This document shows, in pieces, positions 5,946 through 54,604 of a DNA stretch of 64,000 bases; within the stretch, counting starts at the first letter, position 1, and every line of letters begins with the position of its first letter. The stretch lies in the NCBI RefSeq assembly GCF_988242995.1, contig NZ_OZ547043.1; one strand, given 5' to 3'. Made by a program: the position numbers and the translations under genes. The notes under the pieces are model-generated. The model searched no databases, was not told where the DNA came from, and was given only the letters and a program-made list of their open reading frames with translations.

Positions 5946-8749
<2,804 letters not shown>

Positions 8750-8924: not shown

Positions 8925-8938
8925 CTGTAAATGTTCAG

Positions 8939-9694: not shown

Positions 9695-9706
9695 ATACAC
9701 TTTTTT

Positions 9707-10192: not shown

Positions 10193-10470
10193 GTCAAACC
10201 ATTTTATTTGTCTGCGCCACGGGTATTGCCACATCCACGGCGGTAACAGAAAAAGTCATGGAATATTGTAAAGAGCACGGTCTTAACGTCAATTATTCCC
10301 AAACCAACGTTGCCTCTTTACCTGGAAATACTGACGGCGTAGCACTGGTAGTCTCAACGACTAAAGTGCCTTATGAACTCGACGTCCCGGTGGTTAACGG
10401 CTTGCCGATTATTACCGGTATTGGCGAAGAGAAAGTACTGGCGCAAATTGTTTCGATCCTTAAAAAGTAA
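10189..10470 (+). CDS. PTS EIIB component, galactitol family
   Basis: 93 aa; N-terminal active-site Cys motif (ILFVCATGIATS); 4-nt overlap with EIIA. Confidence 0.75.
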   Translation: MSQTILFVCATGIATSTAVTEKVMEYCKEHGLNVNYSQTNVASLPGNTDGVALVVSTTKVPYELDVPVVNGLPIITGIGEEKVLAQIVSILKK

Positions 10471-10546
10471 TTAATAATAATTAATTTCAACCCACTCCAT
10501 CAGGCGCTAACGCGAGGTGCGCTCTCGCCTGAAAAAGAGGTTTATT

Positions 10547-11905: not shown

Positions 11906-13406
11906 TAACAGCGCAGCTATCGTTATCGATATTGGCACCACCAATTGCAAAGTCACCTGCTTTTCCTGCCTGGACGCAACGACGTTGGGCGCGCATAAAT
12001 TCGTGACGGCAAAACAGATCTCCCCACAGGGCAATGTCGATTTCGATATCGACGCCCTCTGGCAGGAGGTCCGCCAGGCGATAGCGCAACTGAACGCCGC
12101 TTCGCCGCTGCCAGTCAGGCGGATAAGCATTGCCAGTTTTGGCGAGTCAGGCGTGTTCCTTGACGAGCATGGCGAGATCCTGACGCCAATGCTGGCATGG
12201 TATGACCGTCGCGGTGAAGAGTATCTGGCTACACTTAGCGAGGCAGACAGTGCGGCACTTTATGACATTTGCGGGTTACCGCTGCACAGCAATTACTCTG
12301 CCTTCAAAATGCGTTGGTTGCTGGAACATTACCCACTGCGTAATCGCCGCGGCCTGCGTTGGCTACATGCGCCGGAAGTACTGCTCTGGCGGCTGACCGG
12401 CGAACAGCGCACGGATATCACCTTAGCCAGCCGCACGCTGTGTCTGGACGTGCGCAAAGGCGCATGGTCAGTGAAAGCGGCGGCGTTGTTACACGTTCCC
12501 TGTTCAGCATTTGCGCCATTGGTGCAGCCAGGCGAACACGCCGGATGGGTCAGCGAGTCGCTCTGCAAAACGCTTGGGTTCTCGCAACCGGTCAGCGTGA
12601 CGCTGGCCGGACATGACCATATGGTGGGTGCGCGAGCGTTGCAGATGATGCCGGGCGATATCCTTAACTCGACGGGGACCACAGAAGGTATTCTGCAACT
12701 GGATACACAACCGACGCTGGATGAACAGGCCAAACGTGACAAGCTGGCAAACGGCTGTTATTCGCTTGCAAACCAGTTCACCCTGTTTGCGTCGCTGCCC
12801 GTGGGCGGTTTCGCTCTGGAGTGGCTGCGTAACACGTTCCGGCTAACCGATGAGGAGATCGCCGCATCACTTACTCGCGGACATGCGGATTACCTGGCGG
12901 GGAACTGGTCGCTCGATGACATTCCCCTCTTTATTCCACATCTTCGCGGTTCGGGTTCGCCCTATAAAAATCGCCATACTCGTGGATTATTTTATGGGCT
13001 TGGCGATACGTTAAATATCGACATGTTAATTGCCAGCGTCTCACTGGGATTAACCATGGAATTTGCCAACTGCTTCGCCTGTTTTAATGTGCCTGGCACC
13101 AGCGCGTTAAAAGTGATAGGTCCGGCAACCCAAAATCCCCTTTGGCTGCAATTAAAAGCGGATATTTTACAGCGTCCGGTTGAAGCAATTGCATTTAACG
13201 AGGCGGTTTCTGTCGGAGCATTATTAACTGCCGCACCGGATATTCCACCGCCGCAAGTTACCATAGCCCAACGTTTGTTACCGAATCGGGCGAGATACCA
13301 TCAATTACAGCGTTATCAGCACAAATGGAAAAGCTGGTATCAGTTGAAATTACAGCAAGAAGGCGTGATGCCATTACACCATCGGGAGGAGCACTATGTT
13401 GAGTAA
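11898..13406 (+). CDS. FGGY-family carbohydrate kinase
   Basis: 502 aa; N-terminal AIVIDIGTTNCK actin-fold ATPase motif typical of FGGY kinases; overlaps EIIC end by 8 nt. Confidence 0.7.
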   Translation: MPDNSAAIVIDIGTTNCKVTCFSCLDATTLGAHKFVTAKQISPQGNVDFDIDALWQEVRQAIAQLNAASPLPVRRISIASFGESGVFLDEHGEILTPMLAWYDRRGEEYLATLSEADSAALYDICGLPLHSNYSAFKMRWLLEHYPLRNRRGLRWLHAPEVLLWRLTGEQRTDITLASRTLCLDVRKGAWSVKAAALLHVPCSAFAPLVQPGEHAGWVSESLCKTLGFSQPVSVTLAGHDHMVGARALQMMPGDILNSTGTTEGILQLDTQPTLDEQAKRDKLANGCYSLANQFTLFASLPVGGFALEWLRNTFRLTDEEIAASLTRGHADYLAGNWSLDDIPLFIPHLRGSGSPYKNRHTRGLFYGLGDTLNIDMLIASVSLGLTMEFANCFACFNVPGTSALKVIGPATQNPLWLQLKADILQRPVEAIAFNEAVSVGALLTAAPDIPPPQVTIAQRLLPNRARYHQLQRYQHKWKSWYQLKLQQEGVMPLHHREEHYVE

Positions 13407-40147: not shown

Positions 40148-40175
40148 AAAGGGGGATATGCCCCCTTATTTGTTC
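40148..40175. terminator. hairpin terminator between convergent arsC and the ArsR-like gene
   Basis: aaggggg-atat-ccccctt followed by atttgttctt. Confidence 0.6.
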
Positions 40176-40486
40176 TTCGTGGCCCCTTCGCCATGTGTTT
40201 TGCTATTTACGCAGCACTCCTCGCGTAAGAATTCAATTATCGCTTCCAGCATTGCGTATTGCGAAACACACATCAGCGTTCGACTCTCACGGTTTTGTTT
40301 GACCAGCCCTACCGATACCAGTGCTGAAATATGGTGACTGAGTGTGGAGCCGGGTATCCCAAGCTGCTTTTGCAACTCACCGACCGGCAAACCTTGTTCC
40401 CCCGCTTTGACCAGGTGTTTGAATATGAACAAACGGGTCGGGTGACCTAGCTCTTTCAGCGCTTTAGCAACTTCTTCCAACTGCAT
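40166..40486 (-). CDS. ArsR/SmtB-family HTH regulator (second copy, atypical; C-terminal Cys pair)
   Basis: 106 aa; N-terminus ALKELGHPTRLFIFKHL typical of ArsR/SmtB; lacks the ELCVCDLC site but has EECC near the C-terminus. Confidence 0.75.
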   Translation of the reverse strand: MQLEEVAKALKELGHPTRLFIFKHLVKAGEQGLPVGELQKQLGIPGSTLSHHISALVSVGLVKQNRESRTLMCVSQYAMLEAIIEFLREECCVNSKTHGEGATKNK

Positions 40487-40508
40487 ATGACACCCCCTTT
40501 GTCTGGTT

Positions 40509-40569
40509 GATATTTCGATAATACCAGAAATATCTTGATCTGAATTTTATTTCGATTATTCTGGAAATA
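40509..40569. promoter_or_regulatory. two similar inverted repeats (GATATTTC-N10-GAAATATC and TATTTC-N10-GAAATA) in the divergent promoter; candidate operators
   Basis: Read directly at 40509-40534 and 40548-40569. Confidence 0.45.
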
Positions 40570-40593
40570 TAGATTTAATCAATGAGGTTGCGT

Positions 40594-41595
40594 ATGAATA
40601 GTTGGCTTGCGATGCTGCAAGATGCCGCAGAGATGTTTGTGTTTCTCGCCGTTGAGCTTTCTTTGCTGTTTATAGTGATTAGTGCCGGTGTGAGCCTGAT
40701 AAGACAAAAGGTGCCAGACCATAAAATCCAGCAGATGATGGGGGCCAGAAAAGGGAGAGGTTATCTCCTGGCTGCTCTGTTGGGAGCCGTTACCCCGTTC
40801 TGTAGTTGCTCGACAATCCCCATGTTACGTGGATTGTTATCAGCGAAAGCCGGGTTTGGTCCGACCCTCACTTTTTTATTTGTTTCACCGCTACTTAATC
40901 CCATTATCGTCGGGTTAATGTGGGTGACTTTTGGCTGGAAAGTTACCTTGTTGTACGCGATTATCGCCGCCGGCGTCTCCGTACTTGCCAGTATTATCCT
41001 GGATTCTCTGGGATTTGAACGTCATATCATTGCCAGTAAAAGCTCATCAGCAAATTGTTGTGCTCCAGCCAAAACTTCGCCAGGGACGACATATACGCCC
41101 ATAAAAGTGAGTTGCTGTAGTCCAGCGGCTAAAGTCATTGAGAAACCCGCAGTTAACTGTTGCAGTACCAAAGCAGTGGCAAGTATTAATCCCATAAAAT
41201 TAGCCATTAAAGATGCATTGCAGCAGTTTAAAGACGTACTGCCATATCTTGTGTTAGGGGTATTACTAGGCTCTTTTATTTATGGCTTTATCCCCTCACA
41301 GTGGATTGCCGCTCATGCAGGGGCAGATAATCCCTTCGCCATCCCGTTGAGCGCCGTTGTCGGTATTCCGCTGTATATCCGGGCAGAGGCGGTTATCCCT
41401 CTGGCATCAGTTCTGATGACGAAAGGCATGGGTCTGGGGGCATTAATGGCATTAATCATCGGCAGTGCCGGAGCAAGTCTGACGGAAGTGATATTACTTA
41501 AATCAATGTTCAGAATACCGATGATAGTTGCATTCCTGACGGTTATATTAGGTATGGCTATCTTGATGGGCTATTTGACTCAAATGCTATTTTAA
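40594..41595 (+). CDS. ArsP-like permease (putative organoarsenical/metalloid efflux permease) with TPFCSCS motif and Cys-rich loop
   Basis: Polytopic membrane protein; TPFCSCSTIP motif as I recall from ArsP; central soluble loop with three CC pairs; start at ATG 40594 (SD gagg) preferred over 40582. Confidence 0.65.
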   Translation: MNSWLAMLQDAAEMFVFLAVELSLLFIVISAGVSLIRQKVPDHKIQQMMGARKGRGYLLAALLGAVTPFCSCSTIPMLRGLLSAKAGFGPTLTFLFVSPLLNPIIVGLMWVTFGWKVTLLYAIIAAGVSVLASIILDSLGFERHIIASKSSSANCCAPAKTSPGTTYTPIKVSCCSPAAKVIEKPAVNCCSTKAVASINPIKLAIKDALQQFKDVLPYLVLGVLLGSFIYGFIPSQWIAAHAGADNPFAIPLSAVVGIPLYIRAEAVIPLASVLMTKGMGLGALMALIIGSAGASLTEVILLKSMFRIPMIVAFLTVILGMAILMGYLTQMLF

Positions 41596-42174
41596 ATAGA
41601 TGCCAGCAGTAAACTATAAGGAGCATTGTGAGTGCCTTATCCTTCTGAGTAGAAAATCATAGATAGGATAATCCTTAAAAATCACAAATAACTTAACTAA
41701 TGCTTTGAGAATGATGACGGATCCGTCAGTAAGTCATCAATCGACAATCACCACGCAATCATGCTTCTCTGACATTTTATCGGAGAAGCAATGTCTCTTT
41801 GTTTCAGTGCTATCCCCCCTTTTAAAGGGCAGATTTCAGTCGCCAATACAACACATTTTTAAATACACTTTAACCTGGTTCATTATTACACATCTAAAAC
41901 ATCACAAAAATATCACTTCACACACTATCGGTGAACATCATAACTTTTTAAAATGAGCGCTTTTTGATAGTTGTTAACGTTTTCCTTTACGATACTATCA
42001 CTGCCCTTTTTTTATACACAAATATTACCGGGTGGAAATGAAAGGGAAGTTAAAGGTAATTATATCAGGAAGATATGACGCATTGTGTTTATTTCCGCGT
42101 AGAAGAAAATCCATTCCTGCTCTAATTCTCCGATTTAAAAAATTTAGCGAAATAGATGAACAATAAGGAATGTT

Positions 42175-43398
42175 ATGTCAATTGACTTTACCCCAGGTAT
42201 GATAAATACATATCACGGCGATATTTATAACCGCACAACAGATACCGACAATGTTAAAACACCAGACACACCGATGTGGCCTTGTGATAATCAGGAAGAA
42301 CAGCAACCCATTAATTTTTCATTGTCTGAAGAAGGATATAACGCTGAACAATTTGATTTAGCGCAACAACAACTCCAACAAATTAATGCGTGCCACACGA
42401 ACACTACATATACAAATGCAGACTACTCAAAAGTTGTGGCTCAACTTGTAAGTCTTATTACTAACATTGAAACGATAAGTTCGACACCACTTACGCAACA
42501 GACACAATCAATACTTAATCAGATTAATAACATTAGATACGAAAAAAACAAAAGTGCTGAATGTCGAATCATTGTTGTCGCTAATCCTAAACCCGACAAG
42601 GCAATCATAACTAAAATTAGCGTAGAAGAGGGAATACCAGTAAGATTCAGTGTCCAAACCATGTTTTCAGATACTAATTTTATTGCTGAACAACAGGCTG
42701 ACTTACCTACTAATATAAAAGATATTCAAAACCTGTATCAAAAAATGACGAAGTTATATATTGAGCACAGTGAAAATAAAAACAGGATGAAAGTCTTTGC
42801 CGGAACCAACTTTATTGATTTCAATATGACAGGACAGAACCTGTCCGGGTTCGTTCTAACCTTGTCAAGGTTTTATTTCGAAGATCTACTTAATATAAAT
42901 TTCACTGACGCAAATTTAGGTGACACTATTTTTTCACATAAAGAACACCCTACCCCAAAATTATATAAAGACGAACAATATCTTGACAAACAAATCGAAG
43001 GTTTATTTTCAACATTATTAACCATTAATGACAACTTTTTACGAGCAAAAGCGGAAATTGCTTCGACAATAATTAAATTCTTAGAGGCCAGGATAACCAA
43101 TATTTCATACAATGACATATTAAAATATCAGCAAGAATTCAAAAAACAATGTTATAAGCAAGTTAAAGCCTTTACGACACTCTCCCGATACAATAAAATT
43201 CAAACATGGGCAGAAATGTCTGAATATCAATTCGAAGTATTTCAATACGAGACGCTTAACCCAAAAAAAATGTCATACGCACCTTATTTAAAGAGATCGC
43301 TACCTGATGAAAAAACTATAAATTATGGGGTGGAAATAGAAACACCATCTGGCAAAAGAATTCGCTTATCAAATCATTACCAGAATATAATCCCATAA
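42175..43398 (+). CDS. yhiS: uncharacterized protein YhiS, apparently intact (407 aa)
   Basis: Position between the ars region and slp; AT-rich, Asn/Ile-rich soluble protein. Confidence 0.6.
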
Positions 43399-43642
43399 TA
43401 TGAACATTAGCACTTTATAATCATTGAATAAAAATAGATTTTATGTACCTTTAAAAAAAGGCTATTTTATGGGGCGATGGATACTCATGTCACGCCCCAA
43501 AATTAACAGAATTAAACTAAACAGAAGGGATATAAACATCAGACAGGTTTACGTTACTATCAGGCATATCGCCTCAGAATCAGATGAAAACTATAAAGAA
43601 ATATCTATTATGGTTTTAATATTTGTTGATAAGGATAGTAAC

Positions 43643-44209
43643 ATGAACATGACAAAAGGTGCACTCATCCTCAGCCTTTCATTTTTGCTTGCCGCATGTA
43701 GTTCAATTCCGCAAAATATCAAAGGCAATAACCAACCTGATATTCAAAAAAGTTTTGTTGCTGTTCATAACCAGCCGGGGTTATATGTTGGTCAACAAGC
43801 GCGCTTTGGTGGGAAGGTTATCAACGTTATCAATGGCAAAACGGATACGTTGTTAGAAATCGCTGTATTACCGTTGGATAGCTATGCGAAGCCTGATATT
43901 GAAGCCAACTATCAGGGCCGACTGCTCGCCAGACAAAGCGGCTTCCTTGATCCAGTGAACTATCGTAATCACTTTGTTACCATCCTCGGTACCATTCAGG
44001 GTGAACAACCTGGCTTTATCAATAAAGTCCCGTATAACTTCCTCGAAGTGAATATGCAGGGCATCCAGGTGTGGCATTTGAGAGAAGTGGTTAATACCAC
44101 CTATAACCTGTGGGATTACGGCTATGGTGCATTCTGGCCGGAACCGGGCTGGGGTGCGCCTTACTACACCAACGCGGTGAGTCAGGTAACACCTGAGCTG
44201 GTCAAATAA
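43643..44209 (+). CDS. slp: starvation-inducible outer-membrane lipoprotein Slp (188 aa)
   Basis: Start at MNMTKGALILSLSFLLAAC (lipobox LAAC); ORF-track upstream extension rejected. Confidence 0.9.
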   Translation: MNMTKGALILSLSFLLAACSSIPQNIKGNNQPDIQKSFVAVHNQPGLYVGQQARFGGKVINVINGKTDTLLEIAVLPLDSYAKPDIEANYQGRLLARQSGFLDPVNYRNHFVTILGTIQGEQPGFINKVPYNFLEVNMQGIQVWHLREVVNTTYNLWDYGYGAFWPEPGWGAPYYTNAVSQVTPELVK

Positions 44210-44361
44210 CACCACCGAAAGATGCAGATGCTTTCTCAGCATCTGCATCATGCATTACATCAAATTAATACACAGTAAGCTAACTATTATTATAAGCCCT
44301 GTCCTGTTAATTACCTTTGGCAAACTGATTATAAAGTTAATGTCTGCACCAGGAGTCGGTT

Positions 44362-44892
44362 ATGTTTCTTATAATTACCAGGGATACGATGTTCTTCACC
44401 GCGATGAAAAACATTCTGAGTAAAGGTAATGTCGTTCATATACAGAACGAAGAAGAGATCGACGTAATGTTGCATCAGCATGCCTTCGTCATTATTGATA
44501 CATTAATGAATAATGTATTTCATTCTAATTTGCTCACTCAAATTGAACGATTAAAACCTGTCCATGTGATTATTTTCTCTCCCTTTAATATTAAACGCTG
44601 CCTGGGGAAAGTACCGGTGACCTTTGTTCCGCGAACTATCACCATCATCGACTTTGTCGCACTCATCAATGGCAGTTACTGCTCTGTGCCTGAAGCGGAT
44701 GTGTCCCTTTCGCGCAAGCAGCATCAGGTTCTGAGCTGCATTGCGAATCAAATGACAACGGAAGATATTCTGGAGAAACTGAAAATATCGCTAAAAACGT
44801 TCTACTGCCATAAACACAATATCATGATGATCCTCAATCTTAAGCGGATCAATGAGTTGGTACGCCATCAGCATATTGATTATCTGGTGTGA
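44362..44892 (+). CDS. dctR: LuxR-family regulator DctR (YhiF)
   Basis: 176 aa; C-terminal LuxR-type HTH; downstream of slp. Confidence 0.88.
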   Translation: MFLIITRDTMFFTAMKNILSKGNVVHIQNEEEIDVMLHQHAFVIIDTLMNNVFHSNLLTQIERLKPVHVIIFSPFNIKRCLGKVPVTFVPRTITIIDFVALINGSYCSVPEADVSLSRKQHQVLSCIANQMTTEDILEKLKISLKTFYCHKHNIMMILNLKRINELVRHQHIDYLV

Positions 44893-44952
44893 TCGATTGA
44901 TTAATATAAAGAGGCCCAGCAATAAATAGCCAGACCTCCCGTTAATTATACG

Positions 44953-45981
44953 TTATGCAGTAACGACTTCCGGTATCAGCGAAGCAATTTGCTTACGCCA
45001 TTGCGCTTGCTCCTGTTCGCCTTCTGTACGTTGACCATAAAGTTGCGCTATCTGCGTACCATCATGGGCAAACAATTCCAGACTGGTCACATAACCGTCA
45101 CTAGCAGGCTTACGGGTTACCCAGGTTTCAGCAATGCTCTCTTCTAATAGATGAAGAGTAAACGTCGGGTTAAAAATATTCAGCCAACTTTTCATTGGCA
45201 CCACTTTTTCTACCACGCCAGTGAAAATCTGTACGCAGCCACGGTTGCCAACAAACACCATGATTTCATTGCCATCCTGCTGTGCAGATTCAAGAATTTG
45301 CGCCAACGCACTGTTGGATACTTTGCAGGCCAAATCGTCTGCCACCAGATTGAACGCCTGTTGGCGCGTCAGGTTGTGGCGCTTGAGCAACGTAAAAAAC
45401 TGATGAACGTCGGTCATCGCCCGCCACTCTTGCTCAACCACACTGGCATCGGCTCGCATTTGAACGACTGGCGCATCACCGGCTTTTAACTCAAGCGACG
45501 TATTCTCATCGGTGATAAACCGTGCCAGAAGCTCACTCCATGCCGCCATATCGGTATTGTCGGTGGCATAAACTTTTAGTAATGCATCGCCCTGATGATC
45601 AAAGAACTGAATACTCTGACGTTCGCCACGAGTCGTATTTTCTTTGATGTGGAAAACACTGGCCCATTGATTGAGAAACAGACGCAAATCCAGCGCGCGT
45701 GGATTGAGGATCAATCCGGCATGTCCGTTCAAATGCTGGTTTGTGAACGCACCAACTTGCTCATGGACTGCATATTCATTACGGCAAATACATTTGGTCT
45801 CGCCAACACTTTCGAGCGCCGCCAGAATGTCACGGATATCGCCGCACATCCGCCACGCATCGTGCGTGACGCGCGCAAATGCCAGTTCTGCTTCGCTAAT
45901 ATTCATTAAACCTGCGATGTCACGCGCGTACTTTCCGGGATTTTGTTCTTTTAACTCAAGCCAGCGTGTGTAGTGGTTCAT
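44953..45981 (-). CDS. chuS: haem oxygenase / haem-degrading protein ChuS
   Basis: 342 aa; follows chuA in the same orientation. Confidence 0.85.
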   Translation of the reverse strand: MNHYTRWLELKEQNPGKYARDIAGLMNISEAELAFARVTHDAWRMCGDIRDILAALESVGETKCICRNEYAVHEQVGAFTNQHLNGHAGLILNPRALDLRLFLNQWASVFHIKENTTRGERQSIQFFDHQGDALLKVYATDNTDMAAWSELLARFITDENTSLELKAGDAPVVQMRADASVVEQEWRAMTDVHQFFTLLKRHNLTRQQAFNLVADDLACKVSNSALAQILESAQQDGNEIMVFVGNRGCVQIFTGVVEKVVPMKSWLNIFNPTFTLHLLEESIAETWVTRKPASDGYVTSLELFAHDGTQIAQLYGQRTEGEQEQAQWRKQIASLIPEVVTA

Positions 45982-46029
45982 TGTCTCTCTTCCTTCCAGA
46001 TAAATGCCCCGAAATATCGGGGCAGATGA

Positions 46030-48012
46030 TTACCATTGATAACTCACGAAAATTTTTCCATTACGACCATCCTGTGGGATGCCTTGCGGCGACCAGTACT
46101 CTTTGTCGAAGGCGTTGCCCAATACCAGAGTAGTGGTCATACCTTTGAGCGCCTGCTGCCCTTGATAACTGACGTAGAAATCATTCACACCATAGCCAGG
46201 TTGTTTGCTGTAGCTGCTGCTGATATGTGTTGAGCGATCGGCAAACGTACCGACCCAACCAACAGAGAAGCCACTGTGAGCGATCGGAATATTCAGGGTA
46301 CTGGTAACGGTATCCGGGTTAATGCTGGAGATATATTCCCCGGTATCGGTGTCTTTGCCGCGGGTACGGTTATAGGCCACATCAAGGCTAAACAGATCAG
46401 TGGTATATTTCGTCATCACATCCCAACCCCAGATTTTGGCGTTCGGGACGTTATACGACATAGTTGTCGCCGCCGCGAAATCGACGGTCGTGGAGATGTA
46501 ATCCTTCGCTTTGGTATCAAAGTAGCTGGCTTTAAATTCCAGGGCATCATTGGACAACATCAGGTCATCAAAACGCAGCCCAAAACCGTACTCCTGAGTT
46601 TCGTTAGTTTCCGGACGTAAGTTCGGGTTTGGCACCCAATAGTTGGTATAGAAGCGACCAATCGAGAAGTGCTTAGAATCGTTATACATTTCGCCCATCG
46701 TCGGGGCGCGGAATGCCTGGGCATATGAGCCAAATAACATCAGCCAGTTGGTCGGGTTGATAGTCATCCCCGCACGAGATGACCATTTGTCAGCATCAAC
46801 ATCTTTGTAGCCGTCGCTGCTACCGCGATAACTGTCATAGCGGGTTCCGCCAAGCAGGGTAATCGGCAGATCGCGTAAGGTGATCTCATCCTGTAGCCAG
46901 CCAGAGCTAAAATCGATTTTTGCTTGCGGGAAGCCCGTCGTCGCGCCGCCCGGATGTTGTTCCTGACGATAATACTCACCGCCATATGTCAGTAAGTGAG
47001 AAGCGAAACTGTCGGCAAATAGAGTGGAACGGTTCTCCAGCCTGGCTCCTTTTGTTATCTGTTCACGATACTCGCCGGAACTCCCCGTGTTTTGCGCATT
47101 AATACGGACTTCCGACCAGTAAATTTTTGCATCTGCATTTAACCAGTCGTTGCCCTGCGGGGCGAGTTTATAAGAAAGCTGCGCATCGCGTTGAATTGTT
47201 GAACGATCAACCATCGGGTTGCTGCTATCAGAAGCTTCAACGGTCTGCGGATTTTTTGGTTCACGCGCGTCGTTGTTGTAGTAACGCACTAAACCGCTCA
47301 GAGACTGGGCTGAATCAATTTGCCAGGTCCCTTTCGCCAGCATGTTATTAATGGACTCGTCATTCGGCGTGGTTTCACCATTGCTCTGGCGTAAATCACC
47401 CCGATCGCGACTGGACCAGGCCACAATACCATCCAGATTTTCAGTTCGCCCAAACGCGCTCGCGCCTAATCCCAGGCTATGGTCCCCCGTGCCGCCAGTA
47501 CCAAAGACACGAAAACCACTACTTTGTCCTTCCTGCAATAAATCTTTTGCATCGACCGTATCGTAGGAGATCACTCCACCCAGCGCGCCACTGCCATACA
47601 GTAATGCTGAAGGTCCGCGAACAATCTCAACACGCTTGATCAGCGCCGGATCAAGAAAAGTACCATTCAGGTGTCCGGTATCCGTTCCCTGGCGAACACC
47701 ATCGACAAGAACCAGCACGCCGCGATGATCATAGCCACGCATATTTACATCCTGACCGTTGGTTCGTCCGGTACCATCAAGAGTAATTCCAGGAACATGA
47801 CGCAGCAGATCGGAGGCTGAAGTAGCCGTTTGATTTTCAGGAGCGGAAGTGTCGATGACGCTGACCATCATAGGCGCTTCGAAGGAACTACGGGCATTCC
47901 CCGTTGCCGTAACGGTCATGGTTTCAGTAGCAAAAGCAAACGTTGGCAAGGTGGCAGAAACAGCCAAAGCCAACAAACTCAAACGCAACGAGGTAAATTG
48001 CGGACGTGACAT
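46030..48012 (-). CDS. chuA: TonB-dependent outer-membrane haem/haemoglobin receptor ChuA
   Basis: 660 aa; signal peptide, TonB-box-like ETMTVTA, C-terminal ...KIFVSYQW terminal Phe/Trp beta-barrel signature. Confidence 0.92.
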   Translation of the reverse strand: MSRPQFTSLRLSLLALAVSATLPTFAFATETMTVTATGNARSSFEAPMMVSVIDTSAPENQTATSASDLLRHVPGITLDGTGRTNGQDVNMRGYDHRGVLVLVDGVRQGTDTGHLNGTFLDPALIKRVEIVRGPSALLYGSGALGGVISYDTVDAKDLLQEGQSSGFRVFGTGGTGDHSLGLGASAFGRTENLDGIVAWSSRDRGDLRQSNGETTPNDESINNMLAKGTWQIDSAQSLSGLVRYYNNDAREPKNPQTVEASDSSNPMVDRSTIQRDAQLSYKLAPQGNDWLNADAKIYWSEVRINAQNTGSSGEYREQITKGARLENRSTLFADSFASHLLTYGGEYYRQEQHPGGATTGFPQAKIDFSSGWLQDEITLRDLPITLLGGTRYDSYRGSSDGYKDVDADKWSSRAGMTINPTNWLMLFGSYAQAFRAPTMGEMYNDSKHFSIGRFYTNYWVPNPNLRPETNETQEYGFGLRFDDLMLSNDALEFKASYFDTKAKDYISTTVDFAAATTMSYNVPNAKIWGWDVMTKYTTDLFSLDVAYNRTRGKDTDTGEYISSINPDTVTSTLNIPIAHSGFSVGWVGTFADRSTHISSSYSKQPGYGVNDFYVSYQGQQALKGMTTTLVLGNAFDKEYWSPQGIPQDGRNGKIFVSYQW

Positions 48013-48040
48013 AGCGATTCTCCATGAGGAAAATAAAAAA
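48013..48040 (-). promoter_or_regulatory. FourU-type RNA thermometer hairpin sequestering the chuA Shine-Dalgarno
   Basis: mRNA 5'-UUUUCC-UCAU-GGAGAA-3' about 7 nt upstream of the chuA AUG; U-tract pairs with GGAG. Confidence 0.6.
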
Positions 48041-48300
48041 TGCTGGCTGCCTGGGTTAATACCGGGGTGGCTGGCGAAAAATAAATTTATTTAAAATTCA
48101 GAGCGATAATATTCGCCGGGTGAGTTTACAGGCGTTTATATCCCATGAAATTGCCTGGTATCTCGGCAAATACGCAAAAGCACGCCCTCTTTGTCAGGCA
48201 AAACGATATGCCCCATCAGGAGTGAAGAGCGCTGTGCGTTATCCCTTGCAAATGCTATGGTTTTGTTATCCATATGGTCGTGTTTTGTTAAGCGCGAACG

Positions 48301-48323
48301 TGATAATGAGAATTATTATCGAT
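48301..48323. promoter_or_regulatory. Fur box (tgataatgagaattattatcgat) in chuA promoter region
   Basis: Close match to GATAATGATAATCATTATC consensus, about 290 nt upstream of chuA. Confidence 0.6.
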
Positions 48324-48652
48324 CAATTTTTTATGATCAAGCTTTTTTTTAACCGCCATTAACACAATAAACAGGGGGTTATGAAACTTATCCTGCGCCC
48401 TGGAAACCACTTTGTTTTTATGGTTATTCCCCCATGACCTCATCACTAAACTTTGTCGTTAACAGTGATAATTTTCTCTTCGCTTTGCTCTGCAAGCCTC
48501 GATATCTCTGGGTTCTCAGCTTTTTCCCGCGATGAAATTTAGTCGGTAACAAGAACGTTAGCTGACGAAGCATCTTGATAAAAATCAAAAATAAATACGC
48601 TTGTAACGCCTTGCGTATTGAATCGACGGTTGTATTTCATATATAACTCAAA

Positions 48653-48685
48653 TGATAATCATGATCATTCTCAATTTGATAAGAG
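48653..48685. promoter_or_regulatory. Fur box (tgataatcatgatcattctc plus adjacent aatttgataag) upstream of chuT
   Basis: Close match to Fur consensus immediately upstream of the chuT ATG. Confidence 0.6.
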
Positions 48686-48695
48686 TTCTCATATT

Positions 48696-49610
48696 ATGCC
48701 AAGGATCATCACCAGGCCGTTTCTTTTTTCCCCACTAACGTTATGTATTTCAGCCGTGGCCTCTGCCGCGAAGACCGCGGTAAAACGAAAAAAATTGTTT
48801 ACGGCAGTACTGGCTCTTAGCTGGGCTTTTAGCGTAACGGCTGCCGAACGTATCGTGGTCGCAGGAGGATCGCTGACGGAGCTAATCTACGCGATGGGCG
48901 CTGGCGAACGCGTGGTTGGTGTCGATGAAACGACATCTTATCCACCAGAAACCGCCAAACTGCCGCATATTGGCTACTGGAAACAACTCAACAGCGAAGG
49001 CATTTTGTCACTTCGCCCGGATAGCGTAATTACCTGGCAGGATGCCGGGCCACAAATTGTGCTCGACCAATTACGAGCGCAGAAAGTCAACGTCGTCACC
49101 CTGCCGCGTGTGCCTGCCACCCTTGAGCAGATGTACGCCAACATTCGCCAACTGGCAAAAACGCTACAGGTTCCTGAACAAGGCGAGGCGCTGGTGACAC
49201 AGATCAACCAACGCCTGGAGCGAGTACAGCAAAACGTGGCGGCCAAAAAAGCCCCGGTTAAAGCCATGTTTATTCTCTCCGCAGGCGGAAGTGCGCCACA
49301 GGTTGCCGGTAAAGGCAGCGTCGCGGACGCCATTCTTTCGCTTGCCGGAGCAGAAAACGTCGCAACCCACCAGCAGTACAAAAGCTACAGTGCAGAATCA
49401 CTGATTGCGGCCAATCCAGAAGTGATTGTCGTAACCTCACAAATGGTCGATGGCGATATTAATCGGCTACGTTCTATTGCCGGAATTACCCACACTGCCG
49501 CATGGAAAAACCAGCGCATTATCACCGTTGATCAAAACCTGATTCTGGGAATGGGTCCGCGTATTGCTGATGTCGTTGAGTCTTTACACCAGCAGCTTTG
49601 GCCGCAATAA
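48696..49610 (+). CDS. chuT: periplasmic haem-binding protein ChuT (304 aa)
   Basis: Start at MPRIITRPF downstream of Fur box; signal peptide; ORF-track start 48618 would place the Fur box inside the CDS. Confidence 0.85.
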   Translation: MPRIITRPFLFSPLTLCISAVASAAKTAVKRKKLFTAVLALSWAFSVTAAERIVVAGGSLTELIYAMGAGERVVGVDETTSYPPETAKLPHIGYWKQLNSEGILSLRPDSVITWQDAGPQIVLDQLRAQKVNVVTLPRVPATLEQMYANIRQLAKTLQVPEQGEALVTQINQRLERVQQNVAAKKAPVKAMFILSAGGSAPQVAGKGSVADAILSLAGAENVATHQQYKSYSAESLIAANPEVIVVTSQMVDGDINRLRSIAGITHTAAWKNQRIITVDQNLILGMGPRIADVVESLHQQLWPQ

Positions 49611-49629
49611 ATGGATTTAAATCAGACGA

Positions 49630-50967
49630 ATGAACGCAAATAACACCCTGGATCTCACGCCACATTTTGCTTTAGACGGTGATCAGCCATTTAAAGACAG
49701 GCGCGCCATGATGCCGTTTCGTGGAGCCATTCCGGTTGCCAAAGAGCAACTGGCACAGACCTGGCAAGAGATGATCAATCAAACGGCATCACCTCGTAAG
49801 CGACTGGTTTACCTACACATTCCTTTTTGTGCGACACACTGCACGTTTTGTGGCTTTTATCAGAACCGTTTTAATGAAGATGCGTGTGCTCATTATACCG
49901 ACGCCCTGATTCGTGAAATAGAAATGGAAGCGGACAGCGTATTGCATCAGTCAGCCCCCATCCACGCGGTCTATTTCGGTGGCGGCACGCCTTCCGCGCT
50001 TTCGGCACACGATTTGGCCAGAATTATCACCACATTACGAGAAAAGCTGCCACTGGCCCCTGATTGTGAAATCACTATCGAAGGCCGGGTACTGAATTTT
50101 GACGCTGAGCGAATCGATGCTTGCCTTGATGCAGGAGCAAACCGCTTCTCAATTGGTATTCAGTCGTTTAACAGCAAAATCCGCAAGAAAATGGCCCGCA
50201 CCTCGGATGGCCCAACCGCCATTGCGTTTATGGAAAGCCTGGTCAAACGCGACCGTGCAGCGGTGGTCTGTGACCTGCTGTTTGGCCTGCCGGGTCAGGA
50301 TGCGCAAACCTGGGGAGAAGATCTGACTATTGCCCGCGATATCGGTCTCGACGGCGTCGATCTCTATGCGCTCAATGTCCTGCCCAATACACCGCTGGGC
50401 AAAGCCGTGGAAAATGGGCGCACTACCGTGCCCTCTCCGGCAGAACGTCGCGATCTTTATCTGCAAGGGTGTGACTTCATGGACGAAGCCGGTTGGCGCT
50501 GCATCAGTAACAGCCACTGGGGCCGTACCACACGCGAACGCAATCTCTATAACCTGCTGATTAAACAAGGTGCCGATTGTCTGGCCTTTGGTTCCGGAGC
50601 CGGCGGTTCGATTAATGGTTACTCCTGGATGAACGAACGCAATCTGCAGACCTGGCATGAATCCGTCGCGGCAGGCAAAAAACCGCTGATGATGATCATG
50701 CGTAACGCCGAACGTAATGCGCAATGGCGTCATACCTTGCAGTCAGGTGTTGAAACAGCGCGTGTACCGCTGGATGAACTTACGCCACATGCCGAAAAAC
50801 TCGCGCCGTTACTGGCTCAATGGCACCAAAAAGGCTTAAGCCGCGATGCGTCAACTTGCCTGCGGCTGACTAATGAAGGTCGTTTCTGGGCAAGCAATAT
50901 TTTGCAGTCTCTTAATGAACTAATTCAGGTACTAAATGCGCCAGCGATTGTGCGTGAAAAACCATAA
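49630..50967 (+). CDS. chuW: radical-SAM haem-degrading enzyme ChuW (HutW family)
   Basis: 445 aa; CxxxCxxC radical-SAM motif (FCATHCTFCGF). Confidence 0.88.
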   Translation: MNANNTLDLTPHFALDGDQPFKDRRAMMPFRGAIPVAKEQLAQTWQEMINQTASPRKRLVYLHIPFCATHCTFCGFYQNRFNEDACAHYTDALIREIEMEADSVLHQSAPIHAVYFGGGTPSALSAHDLARIITTLREKLPLAPDCEITIEGRVLNFDAERIDACLDAGANRFSIGIQSFNSKIRKKMARTSDGPTAIAFMESLVKRDRAAVVCDLLFGLPGQDAQTWGEDLTIARDIGLDGVDLYALNVLPNTPLGKAVENGRTTVPSPAERRDLYLQGCDFMDEAGWRCISNSHWGRTTRERNLYNLLIKQGADCLAFGSGAGGSINGYSWMNERNLQTWHESVAAGKKPLMMIMRNAERNAQWRHTLQSGVETARVPLDELTPHAEKLAPLLAQWHQKGLSRDASTCLRLTNEGRFWASNILQSLNELIQVLNAPAIVREKP

Positions 50968-50979
50968 CAGGAGTGATTT

Positions 50980-51474
50980 ATGAGCCATGTCTCGTTACAA
51001 GAATTTTTGAAAACGGAGCCGGACGGTACGCTGGAGGTGGTAGCCGAACAATACAACACCACACTGCTGGAAGTAGTGAAAAACCTGCCCTCCTCAACCA
51101 TAGTGTCAGGCGATAAATTCGATACTGTCTGGGATACCGTCTGCGAATGGGGCAACGTCACCACGTTAGTACATACTGCCGATGTTATCCTCGAATTTAG
51201 CGGCGAACTGCCTTCGGGTTTCCACCGCCACGGCTATTTCAACCTACGCGGAAAGCACGGCATGTCCGGGCATATCAAAGCAGAAAACTGCACACATATT
51301 GCCTTGATCGAACGTAAATTTATGGGCATGGACACCGCATCCATTCTCTTTTTCAACAAAGAAGGCAGCGCAATGCTGAAAATCTTCCTCGGCAGGGATG
51401 ACCATCGTCAGCTCCTGAGCGAACAAGTCAGCGCCTTCCATGCTCTGGCAGCATCGTTAAAGGAACACGCCTGA
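50980..51474 (+). CDS. chuX: haem utilization protein ChuX
   Basis: 164 aa; operon position between chuW and chuY. Confidence 0.85.
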   Translation: MSHVSLQEFLKTEPDGTLEVVAEQYNTTLLEVVKNLPSSTIVSGDKFDTVWDTVCEWGNVTTLVHTADVILEFSGELPSGFHRHGYFNLRGKHGMSGHIKAENCTHIALIERKFMGMDTASILFFNKEGSAMLKIFLGRDDHRQLLSEQVSAFHALAASLKEHA

Positions 51475-52097
51475 TGACGCCGTGGCTACTCTTTGGCGCA
51501 GGCGGAAAAGGTGTGGGTGCCAGAACGCTTGAACTGGCGCTGGCAGAGCAACGTCCGGTCGTTGCTGTCGTTCGTCATGCCGATGCCGCCACGAAACTGG
51601 CGCAACAAGGCGTACAGGTTTTTACAGGCGACGCCTGTGATGCCAGCGTAGTCGCGGATGCTTGCCGCGCAGCTGGCCCGGATGCGCTTATCATCTCAAC
51701 AATGGGCGGAGCTCAGGATTATCTGGCGCACAGAACAGTGATTGATGAGGCCGAAAAGGCCGGCATCAGTCGCATGATTCTGGTGACCTCTTTGGGATGC
51801 GGCGATAGCTGGCCGTTTTTATCGGAGCGAGCAAAGGCTGCGTTTGGTCAGGCGGTACGGGAAAAAACGCTGGCGGAAAGCTGGTTGCAAACCAGCCAGC
51901 TTGATTACGCCATTCTCCGCCCTGGCGGTCTGCTTGATGGGGCGGCAACGGGCAAAGCACAACGGATACAAAATCAGGAGTGTCATGGTTTTGTTAACCG
52001 TGCCGATGTCGCCGCACATATCCATGAACTGGCAAATGCGCCAGCACTTAACCAGCAGGTCTACAGTCTGATTGAACCGGACCTGAAACCGGCGTGA
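51474..52097 (+). CDS. chuY: NAD(P)-dependent reductase ChuY
   Basis: 207 aa; N-terminal Rossmann GxGxxG (LLFGAGGKGVGA). Confidence 0.85.
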   Translation: MTPWLLFGAGGKGVGARTLELALAEQRPVVAVVRHADAATKLAQQGVQVFTGDACDASVVADACRAAGPDALIISTMGGAQDYLAHRTVIDEAEKAGISRMILVTSLGCGDSWPFLSERAKAAFGQAVREKTLAESWLQTSQLDYAILRPGGLLDGAATGKAQRIQNQECHGFVNRADVAAHIHELANAPALNQQVYSLIEPDLKPA

Positions 52098-52145
52098 TCC
52101 CCCGGCGCGGAATCTCCGCGCCGTAATGTCGTAACGGAGTTTTGC

Positions 52146-53138
52146 GTGCTCAAGGATTCACTCTCTTCCGCCAGGATCTTTATGGGGCTATCACTATTAT
52201 TGCTCGCTCTGGTGCTGTTCGGTGCCAGTCAGGGAGCGTTAAAGATCAGTTTTGATGCCCTTTTTGATGAGGAATACCGCGATATCTGGCTCAATATTCG
52301 TCTACCACGGGTTTTGCTGGCGGTGCTGGTAGGTGCAGCGTTGGCAACCGCCGGGGTAATTATGCAGGGGCTTTTTCGCAACCCAATGGCTGACCCTGGA
52401 TTACTCGGCGTCAGTAGCGGTTCTGCATTAATGGTTGGCGTTGCTATTGTGCTGCCCTTCTCCTTCCCAGTGGTGCTGGTGCTCTATGAGCAAATGGTGT
52501 TTGCCATTGCCGGAAGTTTAGTGGTCTGCACCATCATTTTTCTCATCACGCAGCGCCATCGCGATGGCAGCATGATGCAATTATTACTCGCCGGTATCGC
52601 CATCAATGCCCTGTGCGGCGCAGCGATCGGCATCCTGAGCTATATCGGCGATGAGCAGCAGCTACGACAACTCACATTGTGGATGATGGGCAATCTTGGA
52701 CAGGCGCAATGGCCGACGTTATTGGTTGCCAGTTCATTCATCCTACCGGCCATTATCGCAACAACTTGTCTCGCCGGAACGCTGAATTTACTGCAGCTCG
52801 GTGATGAAGAAGCCCACTACCTCGGCGTGAACGTTAAGCGTAAACGCCAGCAATTACTGTTAGTGAGCTCACTGCTCGTTGGTGCCGCCGTATCGGTAAG
52901 CGGCATTATCGGCTTTATTGGCCTGGTAATCCCGCATCTGATTCGCATGACTACCGGAGCAAATCACCGCTGGCTAATCCCTTGTTCCGCCCTCGCCGGA
53001 GCCTGTTTATTGCTGATGGCAGACACGCTTGCCCGCACGCTGGTACAGCCAGCAGAAATGCCCGTGGGATTATTAACCAGCCTGCTTGGTGGCCCTTATT
53101 TTATGTGGTTGATTCTGCGAAATCGGAGGATCACATGA
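52146..53138 (+). CDS. chuU: haemin ABC transporter permease ChuU
   Basis: 330 aa polytopic FecCD-family permease. Confidence 0.88.
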
Positions 53139-53905
53139 TCAGCGCCCAGAATCTGGTTTATAGCCTTCAGGGGCGGCGTCTGACTGATAATGTCTCGCTG
53201 ACTTTTCCCGGTGGGGAAATTGTTGCCATTCTCGGCCCTAATGGTGCGGGAAAATCTACGCTGCTTCGCCAGTTAACCGGCTATCTTCAACCTGATAGCG
53301 GCGAATGTCGGTTGTTTAATAAGCCATTAAATGAATGGTCGATTACTGAACTGGCGAAACACCGGGCCGTGATGCGTCAAAATAGCCACATGGCGTTTCC
53401 ATTCAGCGTACAAGAAGTTATCCAGATGGGGCGGCATCCGCATCGCACTGGTAATCAGGATAATGAAACAGCACAAATAATGGCGTTATGTGACTGTCAG
53501 GCGTTAGCAAACCGCGACTATCGGCAATTATCCGGTGGTGAACAACAGCGCGTGCAATTAGCGCGCCTGCTGGTGCAACTCTGGGAACCTACTCCCTCAC
53601 CGAAATGGTTATTTCTTGATGAACCAACTTCGGCGCTGGATATTCACCATCAGCAGCACTTGTTTCGTTTATTACGCCAGCTAGTTCACGAACGGCAGTT
53701 CAATGTTTGCTGCGTATTGCACGATCTAAATCTTGCCGCGCGTTATGCAGACCGTGTTGTATTAATGCAAAAAGGAAAGGTTATCGCAAATGGTAAACCA
53801 CAGGACGTATTGACACAGCAGGCGCTGACCATGCTTTACGGCGCGGATATTACCGTACTTAAAGATCCTGCCAGCCATTCCCCCCTGATCGTCCTCGATC
53901 ATTAA
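53135..53905 (+). CDS. chuV: haemin ABC transporter ATP-binding protein ChuV (256 aa)
   Basis: Start ATG 53135 overlapping chuU stop (ATGA), SD GGAGGA upstream; Walker [10 protein letters not shown], signature LSGGEQQR. Confidence 0.88.
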
Positions 53906-53910
53906 AACCA

Positions 53911-53938
53911 ACAGGAGTACCGCTCTGGTACTCCTGTG
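53911..53938. terminator. hairpin between convergent chuV and yhiD
   Basis: caggagtac-cgctctg-gtactcctg. Confidence 0.55.
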
Positions 53939-53956
53939 AATAAATAACTATAAAGA

Positions 53957-54604
53957 TTAGCTAATTGAAACGCCTTTCACCCCTGCCATACCTTTTAATA
54001 ATCGCAACAGGTCTTCTATCGACGTTGTGGCATGAAGCTGGATATCAATGGCGACCACTTCATGATCTTCATTTTCCTGCAACGAAACTAAATCAGTTTT
54101 TATTTTTTGCTGCTTAAACCAGTCGAGCATTGATACCGTATTACCGTTCACTAATGTCAGCTGTAAATGGTAATTTTTGTTCATCAGGCGGAAGGTTAAT
54201 TGATGGAAGACTTCCAGCACCAGCAAGGTCATCACTGAACCATAAATGCCCAGTTCGTACATACCACTGCCAATAACCATACCTATAGCGGCGGTCACCC
54301 AGATATCCGCTGCCGTCGTCAGACCTACAATATTTTGGTTACGAACGAGAATGTTACCTGCGCCGATAAACCCGACGCCCGTCACCACCTGAGCAGCAAT
54401 ACGGCTGGGGTCCAGTCCGACGTGATCTAAAGACAGCACGTCAGCAAAACCATATTTCGAAACAATCATAAACAGGGCGCTTCCCATGCCAATTAATACA
54501 TGTGTGCGTAACCCTGCTCCTTTGCCGCGCATTTGCCTTTCCATGCCAATAGCGCCACAGGCAATTGCTGCGAGTATAAGACGTATAATAAATTCTGCTG
54601 TCAT
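53957..54604 (-). CDS. yhiD: MgtC-family inner-membrane protein YhiD (215 aa)
   Basis: Start at MTAEFIIRL; MgtC-like hydrophobic N-domain; position next to hdeB. Confidence 0.85.
   Translation of the reverse strand: MTAEFIIRLILAAIACGAIGMERQMRGKGAGLRTHVLIGMGSALFMIVSKYGFADVLSLDHVGLDPSRIAAQVVTGVGFIGAGNILVRNQNIVGLTTAADIWVTAAIGMVIGSGMYELGIYGSVMTLLVLEVFHQLTFRLMNKNYHLQLTLVNGNTVSMLDWFKQQKIKTDLVSLQENEDHEVVAIDIQLHATTSIEDLLRLLKGMAGVKGVSIS

Follow-up and report, generated by a model that had tools for sequence, protein, structure and literature searches.

The closest described systems to the DNA analysed here are the haem loci known as chu in E. coli O157:H7 and UPEC and as shu in S. dysenteriae type 1. 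The locus, its site and its distribution are already known and have been in the literature since 1997–98, in reports such as those of Torres & Payne (1997) and Wyckoff et al. (1998). The same locus underpins Clermont phylotyping. As a phylogroup marker it is present in B2, D, E, F and G and absent from A, B1 and C (PMC8281228), and its regulation by Fur and by an RNA thermometer has been described (PMC5458455, PMC3660397). In O157:H7 and E. albertii it lies within the acid fitness island (AFI), and the xenoGI paper has already argued for its loss in K-12-type lineages, while stating its clean removal from the AFI as a puzzle (PMC5799925).

The window, by which we mean the whole stretch of 64,000 nucleotides from contig NZ_OZ547043.1 (RefSeq assembly GCF_988242995.1), carries a locus that matches these systems in its eight genes, their order and orientation, the dctR (yhiF)–yhiD site, a size of about 9.1 kb and the presence of Fur boxes and of the FourU thermometer of chuA. 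It is 97–99% identical to O157:H7, ST131 and other chu-positive genomes, with zero structural differences from the O157:H7/shu locus. Two features set the window copy apart: a C>A SNP of its own at 53953, in the right junction, and a chuU patch that diverges from the nearest complete-genome relative.

An intact chu locus in the acid fitness island

On sequence grounds, positions 44893–53951 are the canonical intact chu (= shu) haem uptake/utilisation locus. All eight chu ORFs have their full length and lack internal stops; chuS and chuA lie on the minus strand, the other six (chuT, W, X, Y, U and V) on the plus strand.

44362–44892, plus strand: dctR (yhiF), left flank; the TGA stop at 44890–44892 ends on the last base common with K-12
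44893–53951: chu indel, 9,059 bp (9,061 by strict identity in the window)
44910–44939, minus strand: terminator-like hairpin 3' of chuS, stem GAGGTCTGGC/GCTGGGCCTC, then TTTATATT; fold z = −2.8
44953–45981, minus strand: chuS, cytoplasmic haem-degrading protein with two HemS/ChuX domains (PF05171 twice, PF06228 twice)
46005–46024, minus strand: GC-rich hairpin plus T-run in the chuA–chuS spacer (pattern match only)
46030–48012, minus strand: chuA, TonB-dependent outer-membrane haem/haemoglobin receptor (TIGR01785, 587 bits, cutoff 317)
48010–48041, minus strand: shuA/chuA 5'UTR FourU RNA thermometer (Rfam RF02597, 60.1 bits, gathering score 58, E = 1.2e-7)
48302–48320: Fur box of the chuA promoter region, agreeing with GATAATGATAATCATTATC at 17/19 positions and lying about 290 nt before the chuA start codon
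48648–48672: two overlapping Fur boxes, 15/19 and 16/19, 25–48 nt upstream of the chuT start codon
48696–49610, plus strand: chuT, periplasmic haem-binding protein (PDB ShuT 2R7A, E = 4e-162; RefSeq name)
49630–50967, plus strand: chuW, radical-SAM methyltransferase of anaerobic haem degradation (TIGR04107, 571.5 bits, cutoff 400)
50980–51474, plus strand: chuX, cytosolic haem carrier (TIGR04108, 209 bits, cutoff 110)
51474–52097, plus strand: chuY, NAD(P)H-dependent anaerobilin reductase (PDB ChuY 5GUY, E = 1e-133; PF13460)
52146–53138, plus strand: chuU, haem ABC transporter permease (RefSeq name)
53135–53905, plus strand: chuV, haem ABC transporter ATPase (NF010068, 394.8 bits, cutoff 261)
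53911–53937, minus strand: chuV/yhiD hairpin, 11 bp stem followed by TGGTTTT on the minus strand; top terminator match
53957–54604, minus strand: yhiD (MgtC/SapB family), right flank, stop codon 53957–53959 (NF007431, 401.7 bits, cutoff 214)

The assignment of the components draws on families, structures and annotated relatives. The matches to TIGR01785, TIGR04107, TIGR04108 and NF010068 all exceed the curated cutoffs, and ChuS, ShuA/ChuA, ChuY and ShuT in the PDB are near-identical to the window proteins (for chuS, 1U9T/4CDP at E = 1e-222, with the RefSeq name in agreement; for chuA, ChuA 9DHE and ShuA 3FHH at about 1430–1440 bits). ChuU reaches no NCBIfam equivalog cutoff (best score BtuC, 283 versus 334) and is 99% identical to RefSeq ShuU/ChuU. 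The nearest complete genome, ST2747, is 99.0–99.3% identical, its annotated proteins share 99–100% amino-acid identity with the window chu proteins, and the product of dctR is 100% identical to that of ST2747 and 98% to that of K-12. Gene by gene against ST2747, chuU is 96.3% identical and its neighbours 99–100%, a dip that indicates a recombination patch. A metagenome scaffold matches the window at 100% over 7 kb. The earlier note had placed chuS–chuA and chuTWXYUV between dctR and yhiD, inside the AFI; both statements hold, since the eight intact ORFs carry the same names in the RefSeq annotation of ST2747, and slp–dctR lies on the left and yhiD–hdeBA–hdeD–gadE–mdtEF–gadWX on the right.

By homology to characterised proteins, ChuA would bring haem through the outer membrane in a TonB-driven manner, ChuT would shuttle it across the periplasm and ChuUV would pump it into the cytoplasm. 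There, ChuS would degrade or handle haem aerobically, and anaerobic ring opening would fall to the radical-SAM enzyme ChuW together with the carrier ChuX and the reductase ChuY. We infer these functions in the window strain by homology alone; on this reading, the source strain carries a complete predicted pathway of haem-iron acquisition and degradation embedded, with shared terminators, in an acid-resistance cluster.

The published regulatory parts—Fur boxes and the chuA FourU thermometer, in a divergent promoter region—are all present as sequence. Fur, at boxes in the 683-bp chuA–chuT spacer, would repress both divergent transcription units, and the thermometer would gate chuA translation. 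A Fur site has been mapped for shuT, and the boxes before chuT in the window are consistent with it (PMC5458455). Short ORFs in the chuA–chuT spacer show no sign of being genes, and weak Rfam matches to mir-761, ceN63 and Hammerhead_HH9 (E = 0.4–0.7, far below the gathering scores) were set aside as noise. The hairpin between chuA and chuS is a possible attenuator or partial terminator, and that at the end of chuS is kept in other Escherichia lineages in the junction alignment. The chuV/yhiD hairpin is well separated from its shuffles on both strands (minus, z = −4.35; plus, z = −4.07). Being part of the indel, it is missing from K-12, whose filler forms nothing of like stability (z = −0.08). 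The T-run of the hairpin, on the minus strand, orients the predicted intrinsic terminator for yhiD, at the end of an hdeAB–yhiD transcript, rather than primarily for chuV. The earlier description of the 3' boundary as tight and marked by a real hairpin was correct.

Junctions with K-12 and ancestry of the locus

As the earlier note stated, dctR and yhiD are neighbours in K-12: 41 bp lie between them in an MG1655 derivative, and alignment finds no chu genes at the K-12 site. In place of the 9.06 kb, K-12 has a 36-nt orphan filler followed by ACAG. The left breakpoint falls between 44892 and 44893, directly 3' of the dctR stop codon. The right breakpoint falls between 53951 and 53952 by homology (the ACAG of K-12 corresponds to TACAG in most chu-positive genomes) and between 53953 and 53954 by strict identity, the shift being due to the C>A SNP of the window at 53953. 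These breakpoints against K-12 lie slightly outside the 44953–53938 of the earlier note, an interval that runs from the chuS stop codon to the end of the hairpin. Its wording of a clean replacement was apt, because 9.06 kb stands against an unrelated 36-nt filler with neither target duplication nor repeats, as opposed to a simple insertion; the flanking repeats that it suggested looking for, direct or inverted, were not found at 44893 or 53951. There is no tRNA gene in 38000–60000 and no integrase, transposase or IS in the indel, in which every ORF is a chu gene. A search of the window for the K-12 filler with up to 3 mismatches found nothing, and across nine chu loci the longest exact partial or inverted matches were of 10–11 nt, the same as for shuffled fillers. 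Since these matches are no better than chance, the filler is not a recognisable chu remnant; a 9-nt inverted match to the chuS terminator region was likewise dismissed as chance.

Among complete E. coli genomes, chu is present in 2,234–2,238 of 5,426 (about 41%), always at the dctR–yhiD site. Its 2,239 places are all chromosomal, one per genome (2,238 genomes), the only two "plasmid" matches being mislabelled chromosomes of 4.9 Mb. Nearly all chu-negative genomes carry one invariant empty-site allele: 3,169–3,179 genomes of the K-12 type share one filler, and 3,164 of these are at least 99% identical to it. The chu-positive isolates include some from milk, wastewater, poultry and wild birds. 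These sources, and the use of chu as a phylogroup marker (PMC8281228), do not fit the claim of the earlier note that the system is characteristic of pathogenic E. coli. Its placement of the strain outside the K-12/commensal type survives in part: carriage of chu puts the window strain outside phylogroups A, B1 and C (B2/D/E/F/G-like), and its presence says nothing direct on pathogenicity. Assignment of the strain to a chuA-positive phylogroup is the practical use of this result.

The same site is occupied in other Escherichia. chu adjoins dctR in E. albertii (L047) and in the divergent lineages L037, L058 and L003, and the left-junction terminator hairpin is kept in all four, weakly in E. albertii. 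The right junction ATACAG/ATTAGC is unbroken in L037 and L058, two of the three divergent lineages; L003 has lost chuT–V and retains ATACAG. In each case the chu genes are about as similar to the window, at the nucleotide level, as the flanking AFI genes are: 88.5–92.9% versus 91–98% in L058, 89–94.5% versus 85–93% in L037, and 87–92% versus 84–92% in E. albertii. Common site, flank-tracking divergence and the invariant empty allele together make the locus look ancestral and the K-12 state a later loss. The polarity follows from parsimony over five Escherichia lineages, E. fergusonii not among them, and one allele survey. Most likely, then, K-12 represents a secondary loss rather than the window strain a gain, and the insertion into a K-12-like site proposed in the earlier note is disfavoured by the shared site in E. 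albertii and three divergent lineages. As a separate matter, homologous recombination acting through the flanks could also carry either allele from one lineage to another, and chu haplotypes show a visible mosaic pattern.

The chu locus would thus be a non-mobile chromosomal resident of the AFI since before the split of E. coli, the cryptic clades and E. albertii. The GC content of the indel (50.5%) differs from that of the adjoining slp–dctR and yhiD–gadE segments (37.5–40.4%), a contrast which suggests that foreign DNA entered the AFI at that older time. The K-12-type allele would be a derived, single-origin loss, in which 9.06 kb between two stop codons was swapped for the 36-nt filler, and this fits the published absence of chu from A, B1 and C. 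That the window holds the canonical locus, as an old AFI resident, and that the K-12 state is a single-origin loss is a combined reading in which we have considerable confidence.

The hybrid allele and rival histories

Two genomes, HH97 and HH45, for which we found no literature, carry dctR, the filler and then the 3' part of chuY, chuU and chuV. In this hybrid, filler nt 1–36 are joined to mid-chuY at about window position 51803–51809, and removing exactly 2,150 bp from HH97 yields the K-12 sequence, without a mismatch over 436 bp. The exactness of this difference hints at a two-step deletion. K-12-type loss may therefore have passed through a dctR–filler–chuY'UV–yhiD intermediate that is extant in two sequenced strains. 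In a first event, the 6.9 kb from the dctR stop to mid-chuY would have been swapped for an untemplated 36-nt filler; a 7–10 bp inverted repeat between the 3' portion of this filler and the adjoining chuY sequence hints at a template switch. In a second event, an exact 2,150-bp deletion would have produced the K-12 allele, with HH97 and HH45 as the surviving intermediate in which gene conversion would keep the chuY'UV remnant similar to chu-positive alleles. Taken jointly with the two-module origin of the locus considered below, stepwise loss is a tentative proposal whose chances we put somewhat short of even.

The hybrid could instead be a partial re-gain and not a relic, if K-12-type loss was a single step and a K-12-type strain later took up chu-positive DNA by homology-facilitated illegitimate recombination; the geometry would be a homology anchor in yhiD and an illegitimate join at the filler end. 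In HH97, 12.6 kb of neighbouring housekeeping DNA is nearest to phylogroup A strains (99.3%, a rough placement), which nests the hybrid allele within the chu-negative side instead of at its base. The 2,150-bp chu segment of HH97 is B2-like (99.5–99.7% identical to B2-type strains) within flanks that are K-12-type right to the junction, and over these 2,150 bp, with 112 variable sites, the chuY'UV of HH97 differs from that of HH45 at roughly 40. However, re-gain would require an illegitimate join placed precisely at the boundary between filler and ACAG with no recipient base lost, and the two strains have an identical junction, including a 1-nt chuY deletion found in none of the chu-positive genomes examined, despite clearly different chuY'UV haplotypes. 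Identical junction and different haplotypes imply an old, single-origin allele later altered by gene conversion, and we consider re-gain conceivable but less likely than not.

A further possibility, raised in the xenoGI paper (PMC5799925), is that chu and the acid-fitness genes arrived as one block, so that chu was never inserted into the AFI. The two do occur together in every Escherichia lineage recovered, but a joint arrival is unlikely in view of the sharp difference in composition (50.5% versus 37.5–40.4% GC), the position of the chu block exactly between two convergent stop codons with its own terminators, and the 76 non-Escherichia loci, in none of which hemRS(TUV) adjoins the probed AFI genes (slp, dctR, yhiD, hdeA/B/D and gadE). 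Least plausible, and in our view very improbable, is that a 9-kb haem island entered a K-12-like empty dctR–yhiD site in pathogenic lineages recently, by lineage-specific horizontal transfer. Although the locus is missing from K-12, differs in GC from its flanks and has ChuA and ChuS homologues 72–88% identical in Kluyvera, Citrobacter, Enterobacter and other genera (which makes a foreign origin at some time plausible), the K-12 filler is absent at both island ends, mobility machinery and repeats are lacking, E. albertii and the cryptic-clade-like lineages share a homologous left junction and have diverged there in step with the flanks, and the 41% of complete genomes that are chu-positive come from sources of all kinds.

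What an old resident lost once in K-12-type lineages adds is mildly new and evolutionary only: the K-12 "empty site" would be a derived, single-origin deletion scar, and a rare half-deleted allele exists. Both bear on the puzzle of how chu could leave the AFI cleanly (PMC5799925).

Comparison with other haem loci and with islands

Like tRNA-associated pathogenicity islands such as LEE at selC, chu is variably present accessory DNA, linked to virulence in the literature, and its composition differs from the immediate flanks. Unlike them, it has no tRNA gene, integrase, direct repeats or IS, it is never at another site or on a real plasmid in complete E. coli genomes, and its GC is near the genome average, the AFI flanks being the compositional outliers. 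Neither machinery with attachment site and repeats, nor multiple sites or plasmids, the traits of a mobile or pathogenicity island, were found. A likeness to hutWXZ of Vibrio/Plesiomonas is seen in ChuW and ChuX, which reach the NCBIfam HutW and HutX equivalog cutoffs (a comparison with family models, not with Vibrio loci), whereas ChuY is an NAD(P)H-binding Rossmann reductase (PF13460; PDB 5GUY) and not HutZ-type.

The Yersinia-type hemRSTUV (hmu) loci of Kluyvera, Citrobacter, Enterobacter, Buttiauxella, Cedecea and others contain a receptor and HemS pair clearly orthologous to ChuA and ChuS (57–88% and 61–84% amino-acid identity, respectively), together with a periplasmic binding protein and an ABC permease/ATPase. 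These loci are collinear in one direction, R-S-T-U-V (76 non-Escherichia loci), while in Escherichia chuAS diverges from chuTWXYUV, and ChuW/X/Y were not found within 10 kb of them. The window locus, divergent and with W, X and Y, therefore falls outside this type. The T, U and V proteins of hemRSTUV are only 30–37%, 57–66% and 48–55% identical to ChuT, ChuU and ChuV, which together with the divergent layout suggests that the Escherichia locus is a mosaic of a hemRS-like chuAS module and a differently sourced chuTWXYUV module.

The chu haem-uptake locus and its setting

The chu locus in the window is already known, and the new material is limited to evolutionary side observations on chu loss and on a half-deleted allele. 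The earlier note had identified eight chu genes between dctR and yhiD, and both identities and location are right. Gene coordinates come from the ORF listing and the RefSeq annotation of E. coli ST2747, the nearest among complete genomes (99.0-99.3% identity to the window).

Features of the chu locus and its flanks
44362-44892 (+), dctR, left flank
44910-44939 (-), hairpin 3' of chuS, left indel end (z = -2.8)
44953-45981 (-), chuS
46030-48012 (-), chuA
48010-48041 (-), shuA/chuA FourU thermometer (Rfam match above gathering score)
48302-48320, Fur box (17/19 match), ~290 nt upstream of chuA
48648-48672, overlapping Fur boxes (15-16/19 matches), immediately upstream of chuT
48696-49610 (+), chuT
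49630-50967 (+), chuW
50980-51474 (+), chuX
51474-52097 (+), chuY
52146-53138 (+), chuU
53135-53905 (+), chuV
53911-53937, very strong hairpin, right indel end, T-run on minus strand
53957-54604 (-), yhiD, right flank

None of the eight products is truncated, and each shares 99-100% identity with its annotated counterpart. The family assignments hold without relying on RefSeq annotation: ChuA (TIGR01785), ChuW (TIGR04107), ChuX (TIGR04108) and ChuV (NF010068) pass curated cutoffs, a domain search finds the HemS/ChuX domains duplicated in ChuS, and near-identical solved structures exist for ChuS (1U9T/4CDP), ChuA/ShuA (9DHE/3FHH), ChuY (5GUY) and ChuT (ShuT, 2R7A). At 96.3% identity to ST2747, chuU falls below the adjoining chu genes (99-100%), a drop that resembles a recombination patch; variable sites sort into several families of chuU/chuV haplotypes that have been shuffled between strains. 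The locus sits in the acid fitness island (AFI), with slp-dctR to its left and yhiD-hdeBA-hdeD-gadE-mdtEF-gadW-gadX to its right.

The chuA-chuT spacer is 683 bp long (39% GC), and the Fur boxes and thermometer agree with published shuA and shuT regulation (PMC3660397, PMC5458455). The T-run of the right-end hairpin falls on the minus strand, which makes this hairpin a putative terminator of yhiD rather than of chuV. Another GC-rich hairpin with a T-run (46005-46024, -) lies within the 48-bp chuA-chuS spacer and may attenuate chuS relative to chuA.

The island was matched in 2,238 of 5,426 complete E. coli genomes and is essentially complete in 2,234, always chromosomal, with a single place in essentially every genome and two in one; the only "plasmid" matches are mislabelled 4.9-Mb chromosomes. 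These chu+ isolates were obtained from, among other sources, humans, poultry, pigs, milk, wastewater and wild birds. In the literature, chu is carried by phylogroups B2, D, E, F and G and missing from A, B1 and C (PMC8281228), and chu accounts for an AFI of ~22 kb in O157:H7 vs 13.6 kb in K-12 (PMC9144400). Reading the locus as a mark of pathogenic E. coli was overstated; it is ordinary for strains outside A, B1 and C. Across the 7,029 bp of 41953-48981, the window matches a metagenome scaffold in ENA (ERZ28659460, XIEH16-2_SAMEA4525159 scaffold_24) at 100% identity; complete RefSeq E. coli genomes reach at most 99.3% there, so that the window probably derives from a lineage known through metagenome assembly or otherwise missing among those genomes.

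Breakpoints and polarity of the indel

In the MG1655 derivative used as K-12 reference, dctR adjoins yhiD. K-12 identity stops directly after the dctR TGA stop codon (44892) and restarts at ACAG/ATTAGC, two bases ahead of the yhiD stop codon; this right junction reads TATACAG in most chu+ genomes and TATAAAG in the window (C>A at 53953). The indel therefore spans 44893-53951 (9,059 bp), and its K-12 counterpart is a 36-nt filler, ATTTCAGGCTTACGGTGAGTCTGGCTACGCTGCCAC, at a site bounded by GATTATCTGGTGTGA and AGATTAGCTAATTG. A K-12-type junction occurs in 3,169-3,179 of the 5,426 genomes, with filler identity of 99% or more in 3,164 of these genomes and a single filler copy in every genome carrying it. 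No filler counterpart was found in the window, nothing above chance in nine chu loci, and the folded filler has no structure comparable to the indel-end hairpins (z = -0.08). Since neither direct nor inverted repeats occur at the two indel ends, no tRNA gene lies in window 38-60 kb and the indel contains no non-chu ORF, "clean replacement" was a fair description.

The direction proposed in the earlier note, a gain by insertion, is probably wrong. A ChuA-anchored scan with one genome per species retrieved four further Escherichia lineages: E. albertii NBRC 107761 (L047), two at ~90-91% identity to the window (L037 and L058) and one at ~95% (L003, Escherichia sp. MOD1-EC7003). chuS-chuA adjoins dctR through a homologous left junction in all four, and the right junction is also homologous in L037 and L058. 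In every lineage compared, per-gene chu identity to the window parallels that of the AFI flanks, as predicted by vertical co-divergence and not by recent transfer. This co-divergence, together with the monomorphic empty site, argues that the chu-bearing state is probably ancestral and that K-12 has a derived loss allele of single origin. The GC contrast between chu (50.5%) and the AFI flanks (37.5-40.4%) suggests a foreign origin for chu, with its entry into the AFI falling in that older period.

E. albertii lacks yhiD, and its chuV abuts hdeB 66 bp away, so that the right-hand neighbour is unlike that in the window. L003 retains chuAS and has lost chuTWXYUV (window 48443-53948). A partial ERIC/IRU repeat occupies the deletion site, and the end of the deletion lies no more than 3 nt from the right breakpoint of K-12; another ERIC copy, facing the other way, has inserted upstream of chuA.

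ERIC/deletion features of L003
12107-12230 and 12538-12621, reverse-complement coordinates

A half-deleted hybrid allele

Two strains, HH97 (met via a filler search) and HH45 (via a junction search), and no others among the 5,426 genomes, carry a hybrid allele ordered dctR stop codon, filler nt 1-36, chuY' (from mid-chuY onwards), chuU, chuV, hairpin, ACAG, yhiD.

Hybrid alleles, both matching window ~51803-53951
HH97 (L091), NZ_CP116409.1, 3997-6186
HH45 (L092), NZ_CP116411.1, ~4602-6787

In both, the filler joins chuY at approximately window 51803-51809 (junction GCTGCCACGGCGTAGCTGGCC), with a 1-nt deletion missing from every chu+ genome examined. Removing 2,150 bp from HH97 yields the K-12 sequence with no mismatch in 436 bp. 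On these alignments, the simplest reading is that the hybrid is an intermediate of a two-step loss: a first step would have produced dctR-filler-chuY'UV-yhiD, and a second, removing the 2,150 bp, would have left the K-12 allele. In the hybrid, the filler finishes at its 3' end with GCTACGC, and its inverted complement, GCGTAGC, lies directly next to it; this is suggestive of a template switch, but the estimated chance probability is only ~0.03.

The two-step reading has caveats. Phylogroup A strains are the nearest match to the HH97 neighbourhood (99.3%), and the chu remnant of HH97 is B2-like (99.5-99.7%); the HH45 remnant is another mosaic, and the two strains share the junction and differ in their chuY'UV haplotypes. 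Either an old hybrid allele has thus been converted repeatedly by chu+ donors, which we favour with slightly less than even confidence, or chu has been partially re-gained, a somewhat less probable course to which the A-like surroundings and B2-like remnant of HH97 lend support.

The window shows other variation. Between arsC and yhiS it differs from both K-12 and HH97 by another indel (40260-41866); its two genes are present in ST2747 and not in K-12, which has ~105 unrelated bases instead.

Genes of the second indel
40166-40486 (-), ArsR/HTH_20-family regulator
40582-41595 (+), ArsP_1 "predicted permease"

A yhiS-like ORF of 407 aa (42175-43398), with no Pfam match, is intact in the window, split by IS5 in K-12 and reduced to ~380 bp in B2-type strains, HH97 and HH45. 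Two stretches do not align with ST2747: 8749-14553, where ~5.8 kb of differing sequence replaces a 10.6-kb RHS-element/immunity-protein region, and 20048-20756, in the yhiJ (DUF4049) area.

Haem loci of other Enterobacterales

The 76 non-Escherichia Enterobacterales loci with ChuA homologues are collinear hemR-S-T-U-V clusters. Their ChuA and ChuS homologues are 57-88% and 61-84% identical, whereas T, U and V reach only 30-37%, 57-66% and 48-55%, and no W, X or Y was found within 10 kb of these clusters. These differences indicate that the Escherichia locus is probably a mosaic, in which a hemRS-like module has been joined to a separately derived chuTWXYUV module.
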